A stretch of DNA of 48,809 nucleotides, taken from contig CAWJQC010000001.1 in the NCBI GenBank assembly GCA_963844965.1, positions 1 to 48,809 of the forward strand, read 5' to 3'. The stretch is from an uncultured bacterium. GTDB lineage: Bacteria > Patescibacteriota > Minisyncoccia > UBA6257 > 2-01-FULL-56-20. Numbering within the stretch: position 1 is the stretch's first letter; every line of letters begins with the position of its first letter. The notes under the pieces were generated by a model that saw nothing but the letters and a program-made list of their open reading frames with translations, was not told the origin of the DNA and made no database searches. A program made the position numbers and the translations under genes. Shown here one piece after another: positions 6,447 to 48,809 of the stretch.

Positions 6447-7106
6447 TTATTTTTGCGGGGCGGACAGGTAAGGCGGGGGCTTCAGGGTGTTGACGCCCGC
6501 GGAGCCGTCCGGATTTATAATGAATAAGAATTCAAACGGATCTTGCGGGACCGCCGGGATTATATTTTTTTGCACGAGTTCGTCGGTTGAGGTCGGATAC
6601 GCGCCGAAGCGTTCTTTGTACACTTTGGCCGCCGCTTCAAGATAATCAAGATCGTCAAATCGTTCTATGTACGCCGCCGCGCGCTCCTTCGTGGACGGAT
6701 CATTCGTGCTTTGGTAGATTGTTTTCCAGAGATCGCGGACCTTGTCCCGTTCCCTCCTCAGGATGCCGAAATTCATGGCGAAACTTTTGGCGTATGACGG
6801 GATGCCCGGCGTTTGTGCGGCAGACGCGAAATACTGGGCTGCACTCCTCGTGTCCTTAAGCAGAAGATAGTAGTTTATTCCGAGGTAGTAGGGGATGCGC
6901 CAGTCAGGATCGGCGTTGCGCATTCCCGCTTCGCCTATCGTGAAGCTGTAGCTCACGGCGTCCGGGAAATTTTTTTCCGCGTATGGCAGCGTGAGCACCG
7001 AGAAGGCGTATGGATAGCTCAGCTTCGGGTCAACGTTGTTGAGGAACGACAGGTCCGCGATATATTTCGGGCTGCCGTTGAAATAAAGATCAAGTATTTC
7101 CGGCAT
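6447..7106 (-). CDS. hypothetical protein (TPR-like helical)
   Basis: 219-aa ORF, no signal peptide; preceded by the small signal-peptide ORF 7130..7318 in another frame. Confidence 0.5.
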   Translation of the reverse strand: MPEILDLYFNGSPKYIADLSFLNNVDPKLSYPYAFSVLTLPYAEKNFPDAVSYSFTIGEAGMRNADPDWRIPYYLGINYYLLLKDTRSAAQYFASAAQTPGIPSYAKSFAMNFGILRRERDKVRDLWKTIYQSTNDPSTKERAAAYIERFDDLDYLEAAAKVYKERFGAYPTSTDELVQKNIIPAVPQDPFEFLFIINPDGSAGVNTLKPPPYLSAPQK

Positions 7107-8924: not shown

Positions 8925-9040
8925 TATCCAGAATCTAGAAATTAGAAAGTAGAGAATAGAATAAAGAAAACCAAGATTGAATTAGTTGACTTTCACCTTC
9001 TACTTTCTAGATTCCATTTTCTATTTTCTTGCTCTTTTCG
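8925..9040. repeat. AT-rich palindromic intergenic element (TAGAAAGTAGA / TCTACTTTCTA; AAATAGAAAATAGAA / TTCTATTTTC family)
   Basis: ctagaaattagaaagtagag ... ccttctactttctagattccattttctattttc; related copy at 28441-28560. Confidence 0.45.
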
Positions 9041-18376: not shown

Positions 18377-19480
18377 ATGGACACCGCGAACATCTTCAAA
18401 ACCTTCAAATTTTTCAAACAGAGCGTTTTTCCCTCGTATCTCGGTGTTGATATCGGCACGACCTCCATAAAGGTTGTGGAGGTGAAGCCGGGCAAGCAAC
18501 TGCCGGAAGTTGTGAATTACGGATTTCTTGACTCAGGCGGCCAGCTCTCGCGCGCGAACCAAGCGTTGCAGACGAGCACGCTTAAACTTTTTGAGAAAGA
18601 AGCGGCAGAACTTCTGAAGTTGTTGGTTGGAGAAATGAAGACCAAAAGTACGGATGCCTTCGCGTCGCTGCCGACCTTTTCGGTTTTTATGACCGTTCTC
18701 GATTTCCCGGAAATGAAAGCCGGCGAGATAGAAAGGTCCATGGTGTTTCAGGCGAAACAATATATCCCCTCGCCGATCTCGGAAGTTGCGCTTGATTGGA
18801 TGAAGGTCGGTGAATATAAGGACGACAAGGGATTCACGCACCAGCAAATACTTTTGATATCCGTGCCGCAGGAAAGTATCAAGAAGTATCAGACGATCTT
18901 CAGGCTTGCCGGATTGAACTTGAAGGCGCTTGAGATTGAAAGTTTGAGCCTTACGAGAATTTTTGGAGGGACCGATCTCTCGCCGGCCATTGTGGCGGAT
19001 ATCGGCAGCCGCTCCACGAACATTATTTTTCTTGACAAAGGGCAGTTGAAATTCAACAAGCAGAGCGATTTTGCCGGAGCGTCGCTCACTCAGGCCCTCT
19101 CGGAGAGTTTGGGTATAAATTCGCTTCGCGCGGAAGAGCTGAAGAAGGAACGGGGGGTCGCGGGGACCGGTCCAAACTACGAGTTATCCACAATAATGAT
19201 GCCCCTTTTGGATGCTATAATTAACGAGATAAAGAAGGCGCGCTACAGTTACGGGGAACAGTTTCCTGGAGCGGCGAAGGCCGAAAGGTTGATCATTTCC
19301 GGCGGCAGCGCCAACCTCATTGGTGTTGAGAAATATTTTGAAAGAGAGTTTGGCCTGCCGGTTATAAAGGCAAATCCGTTCGCGAAGTTTGAGTATCCGC
19401 CGGCAATTGATTCAATGGTACCGGAACTCAATCCGATAATGAGCGTAGCGCTGGGACTGACGCTAAGAGAATTCATTTGA
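18377..19480 (+). CDS. pilM: type IV pilus assembly protein PilM (actin-like ATPase fold)
   Basis: 367 aa, YLGVDIGTTSIKVVEV and DIGSRSTNIIFLDKG motifs. Confidence 0.85.
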   Translation: MDTANIFKTFKFFKQSVFPSYLGVDIGTTSIKVVEVKPGKQLPEVVNYGFLDSGGQLSRANQALQTSTLKLFEKEAAELLKLLVGEMKTKSTDAFASLPTFSVFMTVLDFPEMKAGEIERSMVFQAKQYIPSPISEVALDWMKVGEYKDDKGFTHQQILLISVPQESIKKYQTIFRLAGLNLKALEIESLSLTRIFGGTDLSPAIVADIGSRSTNIIFLDKGQLKFNKQSDFAGASLTQALSESLGINSLRAEELKKERGVAGTGPNYELSTIMMPLLDAIINEIKKARYSYGEQFPGAAKAERLIISGGSANLIGVEKYFEREFGLPVIKANPFAKFEYPPAIDSMVPELNPIMSVALGLTLREFI

Positions 19481-19578
19481 AATTTCTAATTACCAATTTC
19501 TAATTTCTAAATAAATCCCAAATTACAATTTCCAAATTGTTTAGAAATTAGGTATTAGAAATTGGAAATTTAAAGTAC
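19481..19578. repeat. AT-rich intergenic palindromic element (AATTTCTAATT...CCAATTTCTAAATAAAT...TTGTTTAGAAATTAGGTATTAGAAATTGGAAATTT)
   Basis: Homologous to the element at 20841-20968. Confidence 0.5.
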
Positions 19579-20139
19579 ATGGCTCTTCCACAAAAAGTTA
19601 TTGAGCAACTTGGGCGCGAGCCGCCGAGAACGCCTGGCTGGTCAGGACAGCTTCTTATATTTTCAAGCACCGTTTTCGTGGTTTGCCTTTTCATATATCT
19701 CGGGCTTGTTTTCGGTTACCAGTCATATCTGCAGGATGGAGTTCAGAAACTTCAGGACCAAATCCAGCTTTTCAGTCAAAAAATTCCTACGGACGAGCAG
19801 GCGAAACTGGTCAGTTTTTATTCGCAAATCGCGAATTTGCGGTCATTGATCTCCAATCGTGTCATATCTTCGCGCGCCCTTGCCTGGCTTGAGAAGAACA
19901 CGCAAGCGAATTCTTACTTGGACAAATTCGGCCTGGACACCGCCGGTGCCAAGATGACCGTTGGCGTCAAATCCAAAACGATGGCGGATGCGTTGCAACA
20001 AATCGCCATATTTGAGAACCTGCCGGAGATTAAAAGCGTTGACATAGGCGGCATAAGCTTCAGCGAAAATTTGTGGCAGTTTGACGCGACCATTGTGCTC
20101 ACGCCCGGGTATTTCAATTATGGCAGCGGCAACCAGTAG
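19579..20139 (+). CDS. pilN: PilN-like pilus assembly protein (short cytoplasmic N-terminus, single TM, periplasmic domain)
   Basis: 186 aa, TM LLIFSSTVFVVCLFIYLGLVFGY; position directly after pilM. Confidence 0.5.
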   Translation: MALPQKVIEQLGREPPRTPGWSGQLLIFSSTVFVVCLFIYLGLVFGYQSYLQDGVQKLQDQIQLFSQKIPTDEQAKLVSFYSQIANLRSLISNRVISSRALAWLEKNTQANSYLDKFGLDTAGAKMTVGVKSKTMADALQQIAIFENLPEIKSVDIGGISFSENLWQFDATIVLTPGYFNYGSGNQ

Positions 20140-20198
20140 AAAAATTAAAAATTTCCCACAGCCTTTAATTTTTTGATGTTTAATCTTCAATTTGTTTC

Positions 20199-20840
20199 AT
20201 GAAGCAGACTACAAAAAGATTCTTAAGTATGATTTTGGGTCTGGTATTTCTCCTGTCCTCTTTACTTATGTATCTTGAGCTGATTCAGCCTGCCTACAGC
20301 AACGCTCAACAAACGAAAGCGCAGAAAAACAGCCTGCAGGTTTTTTTCGACAGCGAGGAAAAAGTCGTTGAACAGGTTGAGAAGCTGGCAAGTTCTTACG
20401 AAGGGGAAGGTGAGGTGCAGCAGGCGGTTTCCGAAGTTCTTCCGACGAGGATGGACATCGCCGGGGCGATAGCCCAACTCTACGGTCTTGCGCAAAACAA
20501 CAACTTGGCGGTGAAGTCTCTCGACCTGTCCACGGCGCCAGCCCCGCTTAAGAAAAATACGAACGCTAACCCGGGAACCACCCAGCTTTCGGGCTTTGAA
20601 ACTTCTTTGCAGAAAGGTGTCGGCACCGTATCTTTTGAATTACAATTGAGTGGGAGCTACGAAGACCTGAAAAATTTCCTGTCCGCCATTGAGACCAATG
20701 TCAGGATTTTTGACGTTGGACAGATCGAGGTCCAGCCCGTACCGGTCACCGTAGGTGTGGGCAAGGCCGGCAGCGCGAACGTGCCGCAAGACCTGTTTGA
20801 CTATAATTTTTCCCTGAAGACCTATTACCAAAGCCAATAA
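20199..20840 (+). CDS. pilO: PilO-like pilus assembly protein
   Basis: 213 aa, N-terminal TM and coiled-coil region; position in pilMNO order. Confidence 0.5.
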   Translation: MKQTTKRFLSMILGLVFLLSSLLMYLELIQPAYSNAQQTKAQKNSLQVFFDSEEKVVEQVEKLASSYEGEGEVQQAVSEVLPTRMDIAGAIAQLYGLAQNNNLAVKSLDLSTAPAPLKKNTNANPGTTQLSGFETSLQKGVGTVSFELQLSGSYEDLKNFLSAIETNVRIFDVGQIEVQPVPVTVGVGKAGSANVPQDLFDYNFSLKTYYQSQ

Positions 20841-20968
20841 TAATGAAAATTTCTAATTTCTAATATCCAATTTCTAAATAAATTTTAATATCCCAAATCA
20901 CAAAATTTATAATTTTAGCCATTAAGATTTTGATATTGTTTAGAAATTAGGATTTAGAAATTGGAAAT
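20841..20968. repeat. second copy of the AT-rich intergenic palindromic element
   Basis: aatttctaatttctaatatccaatttctaaataaat...ttgtttagaaattaggatttagaaattggaaattt. Confidence 0.5.
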
Positions 20969-21268
20969 TTGATAACCATGGCCATAGTCATTGAGGAGGA
21001 AAAAAACAGAATCAGTCCAATCAGCATCGCCACTTGGCTTGTGGTGCTTATCATTATCGGCCTCGCCGCTTACTATATCTTTTTCACACAGCCGGAGCTT
21101 ATTGAAGTTGCGGCCCCGTCCAATTTCCAGAACATTGACCCATTGTCAAAAATTAATCTTAATCCCGAAGATGTGGTAAACGGTTCGGGTTTCCAGTCCC
21201 TGAAGCCCACAATAACGTTGCCGGTGCCCGGCAACGCCGGAAGGGACAACCCGTTTCTGGCGCGATAA
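20969..21268 (+). CDS. small single-TM protein inside the pil operon (possible PilP-like)
   Basis: 99 aa, TM WLVVLIIIGLAAYYIFF; no recognisable family. Confidence 0.4.
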   Translation: MITMAIVIEEEKNRISPISIATWLVVLIIIGLAAYYIFFTQPELIEVAAPSNFQNIDPLSKINLNPEDVVNGSGFQSLKPTITLPVPGNAGRDNPFLAR

Positions 21269-28449: not shown

Positions 28450-28560
28450 ATTCAGAAAGTGGAAAATAGTAAATAGAAAATAGAAAAATCAATGCCAGCT
28501 TTAAATAGGATGAGAAGTAAAAGAAAAAAATCACCACCCTCTACTTTCTACTTTCTCCGG
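28441..28560. repeat. AT-rich palindromic intergenic element related to 8925-9040 (AAATAGAAAATAGAAAA ... CTCTACTTTCTACTTTCTCC)
   Basis: Shared TAGAAAGT/ACTTTCTA and ATAGAAAATAGAA motifs. Confidence 0.4.
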
Positions 28561-44614: not shown

Positions 44615-44762
44615 AGCCCCTCCTTTTTATGGAATCTCAATGACCGTCTAACTTTATTTTAACGCCGATTGCGGATATTCGCTAATCATTGCTTCGTCTT
44701 GGGTCTCGGCTGCTGATTTGTTTTTTTCTCGGATTTTTATTAAATTTAGATTGTGCGGCCGT

Positions 44763-44830
44763 GGTGTAGTTTACCCCGTTGGATCGCGTAGCGATTCCAT
44801 CGGGGCCCGGTTAACACGTCCCCCTGCTTG
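44763..44830 (+). other. pseudo-tRNA: tRNA-Asp 5' half (GCGGCCGTGGTGTAG .. CGGTTAACACGTCCCCCTG) with a 37-nt hairpin insertion in the D-loop and no 3' half
   Basis: Aligned by eye against the intact tRNA-Asp 110 nt downstream. Confidence 0.45.
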
Positions 44831-44874
44831 CCCCGCACCAAATTTATAAAATTATGAGATTTCGAGCGGTTCGC

Positions 44875-44949
44875 GCGGCCGTGGTGTAGCCTGGTTAACA
44901 CGTCCCCCTGTCACGGGGAATATCACGGGTTCAAATCCCGTCGGCCGCG
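44875..44949 (+). tRNA. tRNA-Asp (anticodon GUC); flanking sequence extends the acceptor helix to about 17 bp (AGCGGTTCGCGCGGCCG / CGGCCGCGCGAACCGCT)
   Basis: GCGGCCG-TG-GTGT-AGCCTGGTTA-ACAC-G-TCCCC-CTGTCAC-GGGGA-ATAT-CACGG-GTTCAAAT-CCGTG-CGGCCGC-G. Confidence 0.85.
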
Positions 44950-45024
44950 CGAACCGCTGGAACGCCTTCGTTTCAAATATTCGATTTCAGCAATAGCACT
45001 AAATGTAAAAATTTGGTGCGGGTT

Positions 45025-45062
45025 ACGGGGAAGGTTGTGGGTTCAAATCCCATCGCCCGCGC
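45025..45062 (+). other. degenerate tRNA-Asp 3'-half fragment (TACGGGGAAGGTTGTGGGTTCAAATCCCATCGCCCGCGC)
   Basis: About 80% identical to the 3' half of the intact tRNA-Asp. Confidence 0.4.
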
Positions 45063-45089
45063 AAAGACAAAGACAAGGTGGGGGATAAA

Positions 45090-45122
45090 GGGAAGATCAC
45101 GGGTTCAAATCCCGTCGGCCGC
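45090..45122 (+). other. exact 29-nt copy of the tRNA-Asp 3' end (ATCACGGGTTCAAATCCCGTCGGCCGCGC), candidate att-site remnant; an inverted 14-nt copy (GACGGGATTTGAAC) lies at 45179-45192
   Basis: Direct repeat of tRNA positions about 47-75, read directly. Confidence 0.5.
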
Positions 45123-45129
45123 GCTAAAA

Positions 45130-45164: not shown

Positions 45165-45348
45165 TTCCTAATGTAGTCGACGGGATTTGAACGGGGATGG
45201 GGTCGGTCAGACCGCAGTCAGAGGGTATCGCGGACGCGGTCAAGGAATCGCGGTTTTCGTTGCCGTTGCTGTATGCTATACTGTAATTAATAGTTCCAAC
45301 TCTTGCGCTTCTCTTGTTCTTGGTGTATGCTCGAAAAACATGAAAATG

Positions 45349-45666
45349 GAAAAAGTCCTCCAAAAAGAAGTTTATAATCTTCAGTCGTTGTTTCCTAAAG
45401 AAGTAACCGTTTCTGTGCGTCGTTCGGAAGACGGCGGTTTTGCCGCCGAGATTTTATCTTACCCGCGAACATTTACCGAAGCCGATACTTTTTCAGAGCT
45501 TATTGAAATGATCAACGATGCGCTGTATACCTACTTTGATGTTCCAAAAAAATTCGTTTCTTTTATGCCCACCTATCTTCCTCCACTCGATTCTTCGGTG
45601 AGAGACCTCATCGGTCTCCCCGTACACATGAAACCGGAAAAAATTACATTAGAATTGGCGAGGTGA
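45349..45666 (+). CDS. hicB: HicB-like antitoxin (UPF0150/HicB N-terminal fold)
   Basis: 105 aa, FAAEILSYPRTFTEADTFSELIEMINDALYTYFD; GTGA overlap with downstream hicA-like gene; TGCTATACT -10-like element at 45281-45289. Confidence 0.55.
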   Translation, partial: EKVLQKEVYNLQSLFPKEVTVSVRRSEDGGFAAEILSYPRTFTEADTFSELIEMINDALYTYFDVPKKFVSFMPTYLPPLDSSVRDLIGLPVHMKPEKITLELAR

Positions 45667-45890
45667 AACCGATAGAAATCAAAACAACGGATTGTTCTGG
45701 TAACAACCTTATCCGAGCCGCAGAGCACTGCGGCTTTCTCGTTCAACAGGGCAAGAAGCATGTGAAAGTAAAAACCGCAGAAGGAAGGTTTGTTGCCATG
45801 ATTCCGAGGCATAGCCATATTAAGCGAGAAACCGCGAAAGGCATCGCTGAGGCGCTGCAAAAGTTTGGAGGCAACGTGGCAATGAACTAA
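45663..45890 (+). CDS. hicA: HicA-like toxin (YcfA family mRNA interferase)
   Basis: 75 aa, GFLVQQGKKHVKVKTAEGRFVAMIPRHSHIKRETAKGIAEAL. Confidence 0.6.
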   Translation: MKPIEIKTTDCSGNNLIRAAEHCGFLVQQGKKHVKVKTAEGRFVAMIPRHSHIKRETAKGIAEALQKFGGNVAMN

Positions 45891-45937
45891 GCCACCCCGC
45901 ACCAAGCCCGACTCGTTTTACATAAGGCAGAATCAAA

Positions 45938-45965
45938 CCCCCACCTTTTCGGAAAAAGGTGGGGG
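45938..45965. repeat. 28-bp perfect palindrome CCCCCACCTTTTCGGAAAAAGGTGGGGG between convergent genes
   Basis: Read directly; family recurs at 47423-47596 and 48272-48345. Confidence 0.7.
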
Positions 45966-45988
45966 TTGAGTTTGCCTATCTGCCTGTC

Positions 45989-46957
45989 TTATTTGCCGTT
46001 GCCGGTAAAAAAGCTGACGCAATCTCCCTGGTTCTTAAATGGCGAATGATCGGGGTGAAACCAATTTCGCCAACCGTCACCTTTGCATTGGTCCTTATCG
46101 GTCGGCACAGTTGGCACAGTAACGTCATCGCTTATCAGTATTGTCGCGCCTCCACCATTGACCCACACCGAAAAGGTTGTTTTTGGCAGGGTGATGTCCG
46201 CTCCCGTGAGCTTTACATGCCAGTGGCTAGCGCCCTTCTTATCGGTTACGAAGGTGAATGGCTGGACCGCTGATGTAAGTAATCCCGGCCAACCCGTACT
46301 ACCACTGGAAAGTTTTGCAGTTCCGCTTTCGGTGTACCACGTGCCCGTTCTACCGCCACCGTAATTGTCACTCCATATACCACTGAGAGATCCATTAGCA
46401 GCTATGGTGCCAGACATTTGCATTATTGTCCCTATGGCCCCAAGTGTATAGGTGCATGTGAAAGAGAAAGTGTTTCCGGTTATCACAATATTTGATACAT
46501 TCCATTCATAGGCATATGATGGCCCCGGTGAGGGATAATCACCAGAACCGCCTGACTTGGTGAGCGTCATATCATAGAGCGATGGATTTGGGCCACCGCC
46601 GTTAACTGCGTACATGACTGTATAACTACCCGTCAAATCCGCTGGAACATAAGCTGTGTATGGCCCCGAAATATAAACCGTGTAGGTCGTGTCGGGAAGC
46701 AAATCATTCATTACGCCAGTGACTCCGACGTCAATTTTGTCGTACGGTTGATGTTGATTAACGAACAGTTTAGATGCCTTATCAGAACCCGGAATGTCCT
46801 GTGAACCGTACGGAGGAACGGGCATAACCGCTCCGGAGAGATTCCATTTAACCTCTTGCGCTCCGGCCCATTTTCCGATTGGTGTTGCGGCCGAAGCCAC
46901 TCCTGCCAAAACCAATAAGGAAGCAATGGCGATTGCGGGAAAAATAAATCTTTTCAT
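45989..46957 (-). CDS. secreted hypothetical protein (signal peptide)
   Basis: 322 aa, MKRFIFPAIAIASLLVLAGVASA; GAAAGGTCGG motif 25 nt upstream of start. Confidence 0.55.
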   Translation of the reverse strand: MKRFIFPAIAIASLLVLAGVASAATPIGKWAGAQEVKWNLSGAVMPVPPYGSQDIPGSDKASKLFVNQHQPYDKIDVGVTGVMNDLLPDTTYTVYISGPYTAYVPADLTGSYTVMYAVNGGGPNPSLYDMTLTKSGGSGDYPSPGPSYAYEWNVSNIVITGNTFSFTCTYTLGAIGTIMQMSGTIAANGSLSGIWSDNYGGGRTGTWYTESGTAKLSSGSTGWPGLLTSAVQPFTFVTDKKGASHWHVKLTGADITLPKTTFSVWVNGGGATILISDDVTVPTVPTDKDQCKGDGWRNWFHPDHSPFKNQGDCVSFFTGNGK

Positions 46958-47422
46958 AGTTTTAATTCAATTATTGTTTTGCCGACCTTTCAACTTCTAT
47001 TGTAGAAGTTGTTCCATTGATAGACACTATATCAGCCCCAATTTTTTTGCAATAGGGCGCGGACGCGAAAGCGCGCGCGCAAGCGGGCGGGCATTCTTGC
47101 GGGTGAATAATAAAAATAGGGAAACAACGCGCATTGTCTTTGGTTTCCTCGCGTCGTTTCCCCGAGACAGGAGGATAAACTAACTCAAAGTAATTATACT
47201 ATACTGTAGAGAGGCGGAAAATAGCAATAGGCGGCTTGCGGGCAAGAAAGCCGGGAAGTAGGGGAGGTAATCACAGGGAAACGAAACCCTTTGCGGGATT
47301 TCACTGATTACCGCCCCTGCTTCGGGCCTTCGGGTTGCCGCTACTTATCCCCACACTTTCCACAGGAGGATATTAACCCCGCGGGAAGGTGTGGGGATTT
47401 ATTACCACGAAGCCAGCCGCAA

Positions 47423-47596
47423 GTCAACCCCCACCTTTTCGGGAAAAAGACGGGGGTCAACCCCCGCCTTTTCGGAAAAAGACGGGGGTCAACCCCCGCC
47501 TTTTCGGAAAAAGATGGGGGTCAACCCCCGCCTTTTCGGAAAAAGATGGGGGATTGACCCGCCTTTTCGCGCATCGCGCAAAAGGCGGGGGTTGAC
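47423..47596. repeat. tandem array of about 4.5 copies of a 31-32-bp unit (GTCAACCCCCGCCTTTTCGGAAAAAGACGGGG), each a pair of small hairpins; terminal variant with CGCGCATCGCGC loop; no spacers
   Basis: Read directly; ORFs 47291..47609 are translations of the repeat. Confidence 0.75.
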
Positions 47597-47655
47597 CGGG
47601 TTCGGTTAATTTTATATGATATCAATATAAAATTTATAAACTTAACTAAAGTCAT

Positions 47656-47986
47656 ATGAAATATAAGAACACGCTCCAAAAAGGGTCCGCGCGCTTCATC
47701 GTTTTTCGCGAGGGGGATACGTGGTACTGCGTTTGTCTGGAATTCAATATTGTTGAATCGGGAAGCACCCCCTCAGGAGGCGCTGCTTCTTTTGGTAGAA
47801 GCGGTGGAAGGGTATTTAGAATCGGCTCGGAAGATAAAAGCCAGACCCGGTATTTTGAACCAGAAATCAGACCCCGAGTACGAAGAATTATGGGATGCCG
47901 CCGAAGAACATAAAAAGGTTCCGGCAAAGGAAATTTTTTCTTTTGGCAGATTGAATCTTGCCGGAAGAACCTTTGCCGCCGCATAA
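47656..47986 (+). CDS. hicB: HicB-like antitoxin, frameshifted at a C5 homopolymer (47771-47775): ORFs 47656..47913 and 47750..47986
   Basis: N-part ARFIVFREGDTWYCVCLEFNIVESG, C-part in the other frame QEALLLLVEAVEGYLESARK. Confidence 0.45.
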
Positions 47987-48002
47987 CAAATCGAAACTCC
48001 GT

Positions 48003-48236
48003 ATGCCAAGAGGTCTGTACAACTGGACGGCGGAGGATGTCGTCCGTTTTCTCAAAGAAAAAGGATTTGTATTGAACTATACTAAGGGAAGTCATTATTT
48101 CTATATCGGGAGATACGGCGGAGCGTTTCGCCAAGTATGCGTGCCTTTTCATGGCAGCCGAGTGATCAAACCGCGGACACTCAAAGGTATGATTCGCCAA
48201 TCCGGCATTCTGAAAAGTGAGTGGCTGGCAGGGTGA
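48003..48236 (+). CDS. hicA: HicA-like toxin (YcfA family). ORF track starts at 47958
   Basis: WTAEDVVRFLKEKGFVLNYTKGSHYFY..GAFRQVCVPFHGSRVIKPRTLKGMIRQSGI. Confidence 0.6.
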   Translation: MPRGLYNWTAEDVVRFLKEKGFVLNYTKGSHYFYIGRYGGAFRQVCVPFHGSRVIKPRTLKGMIRQSGILKSEWLAG

Positions 48237-48271
48237 TTGGGCGCGAACGCTAATCCGACCGACACGAAATC

Positions 48272-48345
48272 GACCCCCACCTTTTCGGAAAAAGGTGGGG
48301 GTGAACCCCCACCTTTTCGCGCATCGCCCAAAAGGTGGGGGTTGT
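48272..48345. repeat. two further palindromes of the GGGGG/CCCCC family (CCCCCACCTTTTCGGAAAAAGGTGGGGG and CCCCCACCTTTTCGCGCATCGCCCAAAAGGTGGGGG)
   Basis: Read directly, immediately 3' of the second hicA. Confidence 0.7.
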
Positions 48346-48546
48346 GTTTCCGGGGCCAAATATTCGGTTATACACCGTCCCCGCAAATTCACGCTATTCG
48401 CGGAGCTATAATGTAAACGTAGCTGCGCAAAGGTCGAAAGCTTAATCATTAAAACATGGAGAAAAAAACAACAGACCAGCCGGCAGGGCCCGAGCAGGTC
48501 AATTGACGGGGGAGAGGGCGCCTACCGCGCGTTTGAGGAACGGAAG

Positions 48547-48809
48547 ATGGAGCTGCAGAGGTCAAAAAATATGTGGCGAAATTTGTTTCTTGTGAACATC
48601 GTCCTCCTTCTTTGCGTGGCGTTTTTCGCGTTTTTGGGGCTGGCCGCGAACATCGGAGTTACCACGGTACTGTGGCTTGAGTTTGCCCCGGCTCTGCCGC
48701 TTGTGTACTCCGCGATTTCATTCACGCCCAGCACAGCAGAGACCGGAATATCTGGAAGAGTACTCGTTCAAGTCGGTTGTGGCGCGGTCACTCAATTCGT
48801 ACCGGATAT
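48547..48809 (+). CDS. partial CDS (3' end outside window): membrane protein N-terminus MELQRSKNMWRNLFLVNIVLLLCVAFFAFLGLAANIGVTTVLWLEF...
   Basis: Open frame from ATG 48547 to window end, two hydrophobic helices; not in the supplied ORF track (no stop). Confidence 0.3.
   Translation, partial: MELQRSKNMWRNLFLVNIVLLLCVAFFAFLGLAANIGVTTVLWLEFAPALPLVYSAISFTPSTAETGISGRVLVQVGCGAVTQFVPD

Follow-up and report, generated by a model that had tools for sequence, protein, structure and literature searches.

HicAB and HicBA toxin-antitoxin (TA) systems are structurally well characterised, with the PDB entries 6HPB for E. coli HicAB, 6G26 for B. pseudomallei, 4P78 for Y. pestis HicA3B3 and 5YRZ for S. pneumoniae HicBA. 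Most characterised HicB proteins carry a C-terminal ribbon-helix-helix (RHH) or helix-turn-helix (HTH) DNA-binding domain for autoregulation, and stand-alone HicB-fold proteins are also known. From what is known of the family, HicA would be a small toxin of dsRBD-like fold that has a conserved histidine and cleaves RNA independently of the ribosome, HicB would bind and block it through a partial RNase-H-like N-terminal domain, and each module would form one small operon with the antitoxin gene in first place. We analysed a contig of an uncultured patescibacterium (CAWJQC010000001.1, the whole of which is referred to as the window; position 48,809 is the contig end). Its source is probably an ultra-small bacterium of the Paceibacterota. 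The last 3.5 kb of the contig hold two ordinary, unrelated HicB-HicA pairs amid copies of a lineage-wide intergenic hairpin repeat, for which the repetitive extragenic palindromic (REP) and BIME elements are the closest known analogue. We consider it likely that the region is an accessory, repeat-rich contig end beside a scarred tRNA-Asp gene, carrying two independent type II HicBA modules from which the palindromes are separate. The four TA genes are as follows.

45341-45666, plus strand: hicB1-like antitoxin gene, 108 aa, HicB N-terminal fold only
45663-45890, plus strand: hicA1-like toxin gene, 75 aa, GTG start
47656-47986, plus strand: hicB2-like antitoxin gene, 331 nt, with one extra C in a C5 run
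48003-48236, plus strand: hicA2 toxin gene, 77 aa, intact

A preliminary description of this DNA had proposed two HicB-HicA-type modules, each with the antitoxin gene first, and the gene order and family evidence bore this out. As in the known HicAB systems, both are two-gene modules encoding a HicA of about 75 aa with a conserved histidine and a partner with the HicB N-terminal fold, and the antitoxin-first order is that of S. pneumoniae HicBA. The identification by profile hidden Markov models, suggested at the same time, succeeded in part. HicA2 exceeded the PF07927 cut-off (E=1.1e-12, 48.2 bits against a gathering score of 27) and, judged from its sequence, is a clear member of that family. 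It also matched PHROG 353 'toxin' (E=6.5e-10), retained the GSH (His31) and PFHG motifs, and was 79% identical to the toxin of a homologous pair in another locus (L001). HicA1 scored below the cut-off (E=5.6e-4, 20.4 bits), a difference from the known systems, and was evaluated through its subfamily. An exhaustive HMMER search collected 32 representatives, 31 of which were aligned. Since 23 of these 31 matched PF07927 at E<=0.01 (best E 3.5e-9), HicA1 was taken to be a divergent HicA, a placement that is consistent with the invariant His33 of its GKKH motif in all 31 sequences and with an IPRH motif. In this first pair, the GTG start codon (45663-45665) overlapped the TGA stop codon of hicB1 (45664-45666), confirming the GTGA overlap that had been noted before.

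Neither HicB1 nor HicB2 itself matched PF15919 or UPF0150. HicB1 alone had no match to any Pfam model, and its family provided the link, as 24 of 43 members matched PF15919. HicB1 also matched the HicB chains 6u0i and 6hpb in the PDB by sequence (E about 1e-3). Its AlphaFold (AF2) model reached a mean confidence (pLDDT) of 86, and the top 16 PDB matches returned for it by Foldseek were all HicB or HicB-like structures. These sequence and model comparisons suggested that HicB1 belongs to a divergent HicB subfamily. For HicB2, the protein obtained by removing one C from the C5 run retrieved 273 homologues at E<=0.01. The best of them were 60-80% identical over the full length, mostly 104-121 aa long and largely from Paceibacterota, and a 77-78-aa PF07927 gene came next at every homologous locus examined. 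None of 63 family members matched any Pfam model, which sets the HicB2 family apart from the characterised HicB proteins, and a PDB sequence-profile search with the family found nothing. Some members bear the JGI label 'predicted RNase H-like HicB family nuclease'. The structure models pointed to the N-terminal partial RNase-H-like (beta-beta-beta-alpha-beta) HicB fold in the antitoxins; each model consisted of one domain, in which the N-terminal sheet was completed by the last strand. The two antitoxins were short (108-109 aa) and gave no RHH or HTH match in the Pfam scan, unlike the known HicAB systems. This lack does not exclude HicB membership, because HicB-fold proteins are known to occur on their own. 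Searches with four proteins of the region gave no match in NCBIfam and weak matches for only three of them in PHROGs.

The two pairs had no detectable similarity to each other, and therefore appear to be separate acquisitions rather than the products of a duplication; an hhalign comparison of the HicB1 and HicB2 families was uninformative. The pair 1 arrangement of two genes was conserved in three other loci (L047, L048 and L049). In L047, the closest relative with 89% nucleotide identity, the pair lay in a different neighbourhood (gene X, an RNA-motif match, a 5'-truncated hicB1, hicA1 and ychF, in this order), and the homology to the window began within hicB1 and ended exactly at the stop codon of hicA1. 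Homologues of pair 2 were found in five loci (L001, L003, L006, L125 and L126), the two genes being adjacent in all of them and placed between housekeeping genes in differing chromosomal contexts.

The palindromes had the form CCCCCRCCTTTT-loop-AAAAGRYGGGGG, with a stem of G5/C5 outside and T4/A4 inside. Eight copies were found, all of them intergenic and all within 45938-48341, and none in the other 45.9 kb of the window. The 14-nt arm motif occurred eight times against 0.07 expected from shuffled sequences, and none of 100 shuffles reached eight. Within the 2.4-kb stretch, every intergenic gap contained palindromes, including both sides of a 322-aa gene that runs on the opposite strand. The copies were arranged as follows.

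45938-45965: perfect 28-nt palindrome with a 12-bp stem and a CGGA loop, between the convergent hicA1 and 322-aa gene
47423-47552, plus strand: tandem array of four 32-nt palindrome units
47558-47591: long-loop palindrome, a fifth unit next to the four of the array, with the loop CGCGCATCGCGC
48274-48341: palindrome doublet, with a short loop (48274-48301) and a long loop (48306-48341)

Both modules were indeed followed by palindromes, as had been described. The first of these (45938-45965) was located 47 nt past the hicA1 stop codon and folded as RNA at -35 kcal/mol (z=-6.9); the doublet started 37 nt past the hicA2 stop codon and folded at -54 kcal/mol (z=-6.4). The tandem array previously seen upstream of pair 2 was present, with a period of 32 nt instead of the reported 31 (Tandem Repeats Finder, TRF; 4.0 copies, 96% matches), and each of its units carried a C·A mismatch on the plus strand. 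The unit preceding the long-loop palindrome, together with that palindrome, made up a 70-nt doublet, which recurred after hicA2. Farther upstream, a half palindrome GGTGGGGG was observed at 45077.

The palindrome pattern was also scanned in genome and metagenome collections, and multiple copies were detected in only one other organism, the Paceibacterota metagenome-assembled genome (MAG) JBAZMG01, corresponding to the Ga0265297 contigs. It contained 27 unique copies on at least 13 contigs. They sat in short gaps by rpsB, secD and the genes for a class I Trp/Tyr tRNA synthetase (PF00579), PFOR, a carboxyltransferase and RNase J, and not next to TA genes. By a crude map of open reading frames (ORFs), at least 23 of the 27 were intergenic, and the other three or four were inside ORF calls that are possibly artefactual. 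One asymmetric position, C·A on one strand and U·G on the other, was kept in all 27 copies, and 17 of the 19 copies in gaps between co-directional genes had the same orientation relative to transcription. The locus L007 of this MAG (6482-6576) held a three-unit array with a 32-nt period, which was 87% identical to the window array over 95 nt. The exact short-loop palindrome of the window was absent from the JGI metagenomes and the general pattern from viral contigs. Single pattern matches in unrelated genomes were perfect palindromes and were treated as chance.

The preliminary description had read the region as palindrome-bounded TA cassettes. A mobile form of this proposal, in which the palindromes are recombination sites of the attC or att kind that capture or excise TA modules, can draw on the palindromes on both sides of hicBA2, with the 70-nt doublet as a direct repeat 750 nt apart, on the adjoining tRNA gene with its integration-like scars, and on the general knowledge that TA genes are common integron cassettes. 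Integron attC cassettes likewise consist of small genes, in many cases TA genes, with imperfect palindromes in between, but the resemblance did not extend to the details. The units measured 28-36 nt and were too short for attC sites (57-141 nt), no R''/R' core arrangement was found, no integrase-like match was present among the ORFs at 43.0-46.96 kb, and the genes were not co-oriented, with the 322-aa gene on the opposite strand. attC sites were ruled out on these grounds. The palindrome was absent from the pair 1 homologue of L047 and from all five pair 2 homologue loci, and homology ended at the borders of the genes. Conversely, the family flanked core housekeeping genes in JBAZMG01, and in the window it filled all gaps of the 2.4-kb stretch. 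Because homologous modules lacked the palindrome and the JBAZMG01 copies lay between housekeeping genes, the palindromes, as far as comparison of sequences can tell, are neither part of the TA modules nor cassette boundaries, and the cassette-like appearance is coincidental. The mobile-cassette explanation thus seems very unlikely.

Two other candidates were discarded. A CRISPR array did not fit, as there were no spacers and the repeat unit was itself a palindrome. HicB operator sites were rejected because both HicB proteins lacked a DNA-binding domain and the palindromes were mostly downstream of genes.

We read the palindromes as copies of a lineage-wide, REP-like intergenic hairpin repeat, which is also arranged in doublets and in tandem arrays of 32-nt units. 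That they form a repeat family, and are not hairpins that evolved independently, was indicated by the conserved stem sequence and mismatch, the loops of about 3 to 12 nt and the extragenic location, and further by the tandem and doublet organisation and the presence in two genomes of different base composition. As in the REP, BIME and REPIN elements of Proteobacteria, the copies in the window were imperfect palindromes of 28-36 nt, extragenic, multi-copy and clustered in tandem or as doublets, with a conserved stem bearing an asymmetric mismatch. They differed from these elements in the host, which belongs to the candidate phyla radiation (CPR), in the stem with G5/C5 outside and T4/A4 inside, in the loop lengths, and in the confinement of the window copies to a single 2.4-kb stretch.

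The orientation bias in JBAZMG01 suggests that the copies are transcribed and have a role at the RNA level. They would probably act as 3'-end, termination or processing hairpins, which would explain both their position after transcription units and their single orientation relative to transcription. In the window, a transcript may start at the promoter-like TATACTATACTGTA at 47195 and continue into a structured stretch of 200 nt, so that all three palindrome clusters would follow plus-strand transcription units. A rival explanation is that the palindromes are simply the transcription terminators of this organism and resemble each other through functional constraint, not through repeat copying. 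Like Rho-independent terminators, they are GC-rich, very stable hairpins after gene ends: three of the eight lie just past stop codons (one in a convergent gap), transcription from the promoter-like motif at 47195 could stop at the array, and the orientation bias in JBAZMG01 fits as well. Unlike such terminators, they have no 3' U-tract, the T and A runs being inside the stem, and they share one common sequence, not just a shape, with a near-identical stem and one mismatch position conserved in all copies. The 32-nt tandem arrays are common to two genomes, and the family is missing from the other 45.9 kb of the window despite the many gene ends there. Some copies are directly before start codons or between divergent genes; in JBAZMG01, 12 of the 27 are followed at a distance of 7-10 nt by the ATG of a long ORF, among them rpsB, secD, the Trp/Tyr tRNA synthetase gene and PFOR (loci L007, L009, L010, L017, L021, L028, L045, L061 and L104). 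Classical terminators were found in a related lineage (L124), and a terminator scan of the window gave matches only on the minus strand of the array, in shifted registers. Terminators shaped by function alone are accordingly rather unlikely.

Several observations weigh against the REP-like reading and the account of the locus built on it. Eight copies packed into 2.4 kb, with none in the remaining 45.9 kb, are unlike the even dispersal of REP elements. Genome-wide dispersal was seen only in the relative JBAZMG01, the evidence for the genome of the window being this contig only. Five of the eight palindromes are between divergently oriented protein-coding genes, and the U-tract of classical terminators is missing. 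The doublets form a direct repeat around hicBA2 (47525-47594 and 48275-48344, 74% identity, 750 nt apart), and recombination between them could delete the module. The HicA and HicB activities themselves are putative, as they are assigned by family membership.

For the REP-like repeat, the start-proximal copies of JBAZMG01 raise a further possibility, in that the GGGGGU of the 3' arm might serve as a ribosome-binding site or mask one; a Shine-Dalgarno-like motif was not seen at most other genes of this MAG. Extending these ideas, the G5/C5 hairpins may represent an undescribed, orientation-biased REP-like element of Paceibacterota that spreads through intergenic regions and forms 32-nt arrays. 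Where it ends 7-10 nt ahead of housekeeping start codons, as in one MAG, it could hide the GGGGGU sequence resembling a ribosome-binding site or mark RNA processing, and recombination between the window doublets could have captured, or could delete, hicBA2. This combined scenario is a speculative one, to which we attach a low probability.

The hicB2 frame spans 331 nt, which is not a multiple of three, and is read as two ORFs, one of 85 aa and, in the +1 frame, one of 78 aa. The break had been reported at a C5 run; it is indeed there, at 47768-47772 and not at 47771-47775 as given. Removal of one C from this run restored an intact 109-aa ORF, and the repaired HicB2 retained all 16 invariant residues of the 63-sequence alignment, seven of which lie past the break. 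The gene immediately following pair 2, here called gene X, was damaged as well.

48456-48809, plus strand: gene X, encoding a membrane protein and cut off by the contig end, in at least four frame segments relative to its L047 homologue

When compared with this homologue (83% identical) by tblastn, gene X was read in frames +3, +1, +3 and +2, and in the DNA alignment the window had four gaps of 1 nt each. At a distance of 220 nt from pair 2, the frame thus changes at least three more times, and the last 1.05 kb of the contig, next to the repeats, contain a cluster of about five indels.

This cluster fits either a poorly resolved contig end or a decaying accessory region. We lean slightly to the former, because an intact orphan toxin should be costly and the broken genes are otherwise undecayed. 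For hicB2 itself, a consensus error or a minority variant in the poorly resolved, repeat-rich contig end is thus the explanation we marginally favour. A real, recent inactivation in a decaying accessory region is a serious possibility, and programmed frameshifting a scarcely credible one. A programmed site at the C5 run was rejected since it is not conserved: the homologues have no C-run at the break, which makes a conserved slippage site unlikely.

The preliminary description had inferred that the break leaves the toxin of pair 2 unopposed, and this is doubtful, given that gene X, the adjacent gene at the contig end, changes frame at least three more times. In its full form, the inference would require the frameshift to be real and fixed, with an intact hicA2 lacking its antitoxin in a decaying island and the toxin being silent, tolerated or neutralised in trans. 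The frameshift is present in the deposited record, which lists the 85-aa hicB2 fragment among the called proteins of the contig, as it does HicA2 and the 322-aa protein. Besides the broken gene X, pair 1 of the close relative L047 has decayed, with its truncated hicB1 and a 2-nt insertion in hicA1. Loss of an antitoxin beside a toxin with GSH and PFHG kept is, however, expected to be harmful, the 70 codons of hicB2 past the break show no decay, and about five indels by repeats at the contig end fit assembly or polishing error as well. An antitoxin-less hicA2 is therefore a possibility that we hold only tentatively. An antisense ORF of 265 aa (47652-48449, minus strand) spanning hicB2-hicA2 and the downstream palindromes was judged spurious and is not among the called proteins of the record. 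The region as a whole calls for caution, as the broken antitoxin and the cassette-like appearance both belong to a contig end rich in repeats, where the quality of the sequence and the calling of genes are at their least reliable.

The remaining features of the contig end are as follows.

44875-44950, plus strand: tRNA-Asp(GTC), predicted by ARAGORN, Rfam tRNA 66.6 bits
45989-46957, minus strand: 322-aa gene, convergent to hicA1, with a signal-peptide-like N-terminus
47195-47420, plus strand: non-coding stretch of strong secondary structure (hairpins at 47261-47317 and 47347-47398), headed by the promoter-like TATACTATACTGTA at 47195-47208
47592-47620, plus strand: sigma-70-like promoter match TTGACC-17-TATGAT before hicB2, a consensus match only

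The first 43 kb of the contig are densely filled with intact ORFs of up to 1528 aa. Around the tRNA-Asp gene, a partial copy was found at 44755-44826 (the 5' half with a 36-nt hairpin insert), 3' pieces at about 45030-45066 and at 45093-45127, the first diverged and the second near-identical, and a T-arm piece in inverted orientation (45178-45192). The intact gene was bracketed by a 14-nt complementary pair (44832-44845 and 45009-45022). By their sequence arrangement, these surroundings look like scars of repeated integration. Beyond the tRNA, Rfam found nothing in 44.0-48.8 kb.

The 322-aa protein had no Pfam or other family match, and its gene, probably for a secreted protein, is unrelated to the TA modules. 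Next along the contig come about 700 nt of non-coding DNA, a part that closes with the palindrome array and the long-loop unit. In this part, the structured stretch (47195-47420) folded with z=-5.4 on both strands; it matched nothing in Rfam, and none of the fetched loci contained a homologue. The stretch is a candidate small RNA or a candidate long leader of hicBA2. Its 14-nt motif TATACTATACTGTA closely resembled a motif upstream of hicB1 (45272-45285). Four sites shared a TATGCTA(T/A)A(C/T)T-like motif, which lay before hicB1, before the structured stretch, before the hicB2 homologue in L001 (about 164-174) and before an RNA-motif match in L047 (about 800-811), and which may be the local -10 promoter element. 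The -35 element of the sigma-70-like match before hicB2 is formed by the outer flank of the last upstream palindrome.

The RNA-motif match in L047 (834-964) was to LOOT RNA (RF03000; 51.7 bits against a gathering score of 46.4). It lay directly upstream of the 5'-truncated hicB1 homologue and overlapped it, and its last two hairpins corresponded to positions 45389-45436 of the window, within the hicB1 coding sequence. The window gave no LOOT match in Rfam, and the literature search on LOOT RNA returned a single passing mention. In L048 and L049, a pair 1 homologue with 68-70% identity was located amid genes for a Mu-type transposase, IstB, a DNA methylase and a serine recombinase, on a contig labelled Candidatus Angelobacter, that is, another lineage. 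The presence of the module among mobile genes in another lineage points to horizontal mobility of pair 1. An apparent truncation of the toxin in L124 relative to L125 was only a difference in gene calling, as the DNA was identical.

A second family of intergenic hairpins was observed in the core of the contig. These were long, AT-rich and imperfect hairpins of tandem heptamers (AATTTCT... / ...AGAAATT), at 8931-9037, 19475-19576, 20847-20970 and 28450-28560, and at 740-866 with 1229-1284; two related copies flank the genes at 19579-20840. Their presence in the contig core indicates that intergenic hairpin repeats are general in this genome and not specific to the TA modules.

The two HicBA modules add little in themselves, since these systems are common and earlier work has noted HicAB genes in groundwater prokaryotes of ultra-small size (PMC9938205). 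Family databases could usefully gain an entry for the HicB2-type antitoxins, which number more than 270 and are covered by no Pfam model. For the palindromes, the literature search found no paper on REP elements in Patescibacteria or CPR, and the hairpin repeat appears to have been undescribed so far. A REP-like family with a fixed orientation in these small, streamlined genomes would bear on how messages are ended, processed or translated.

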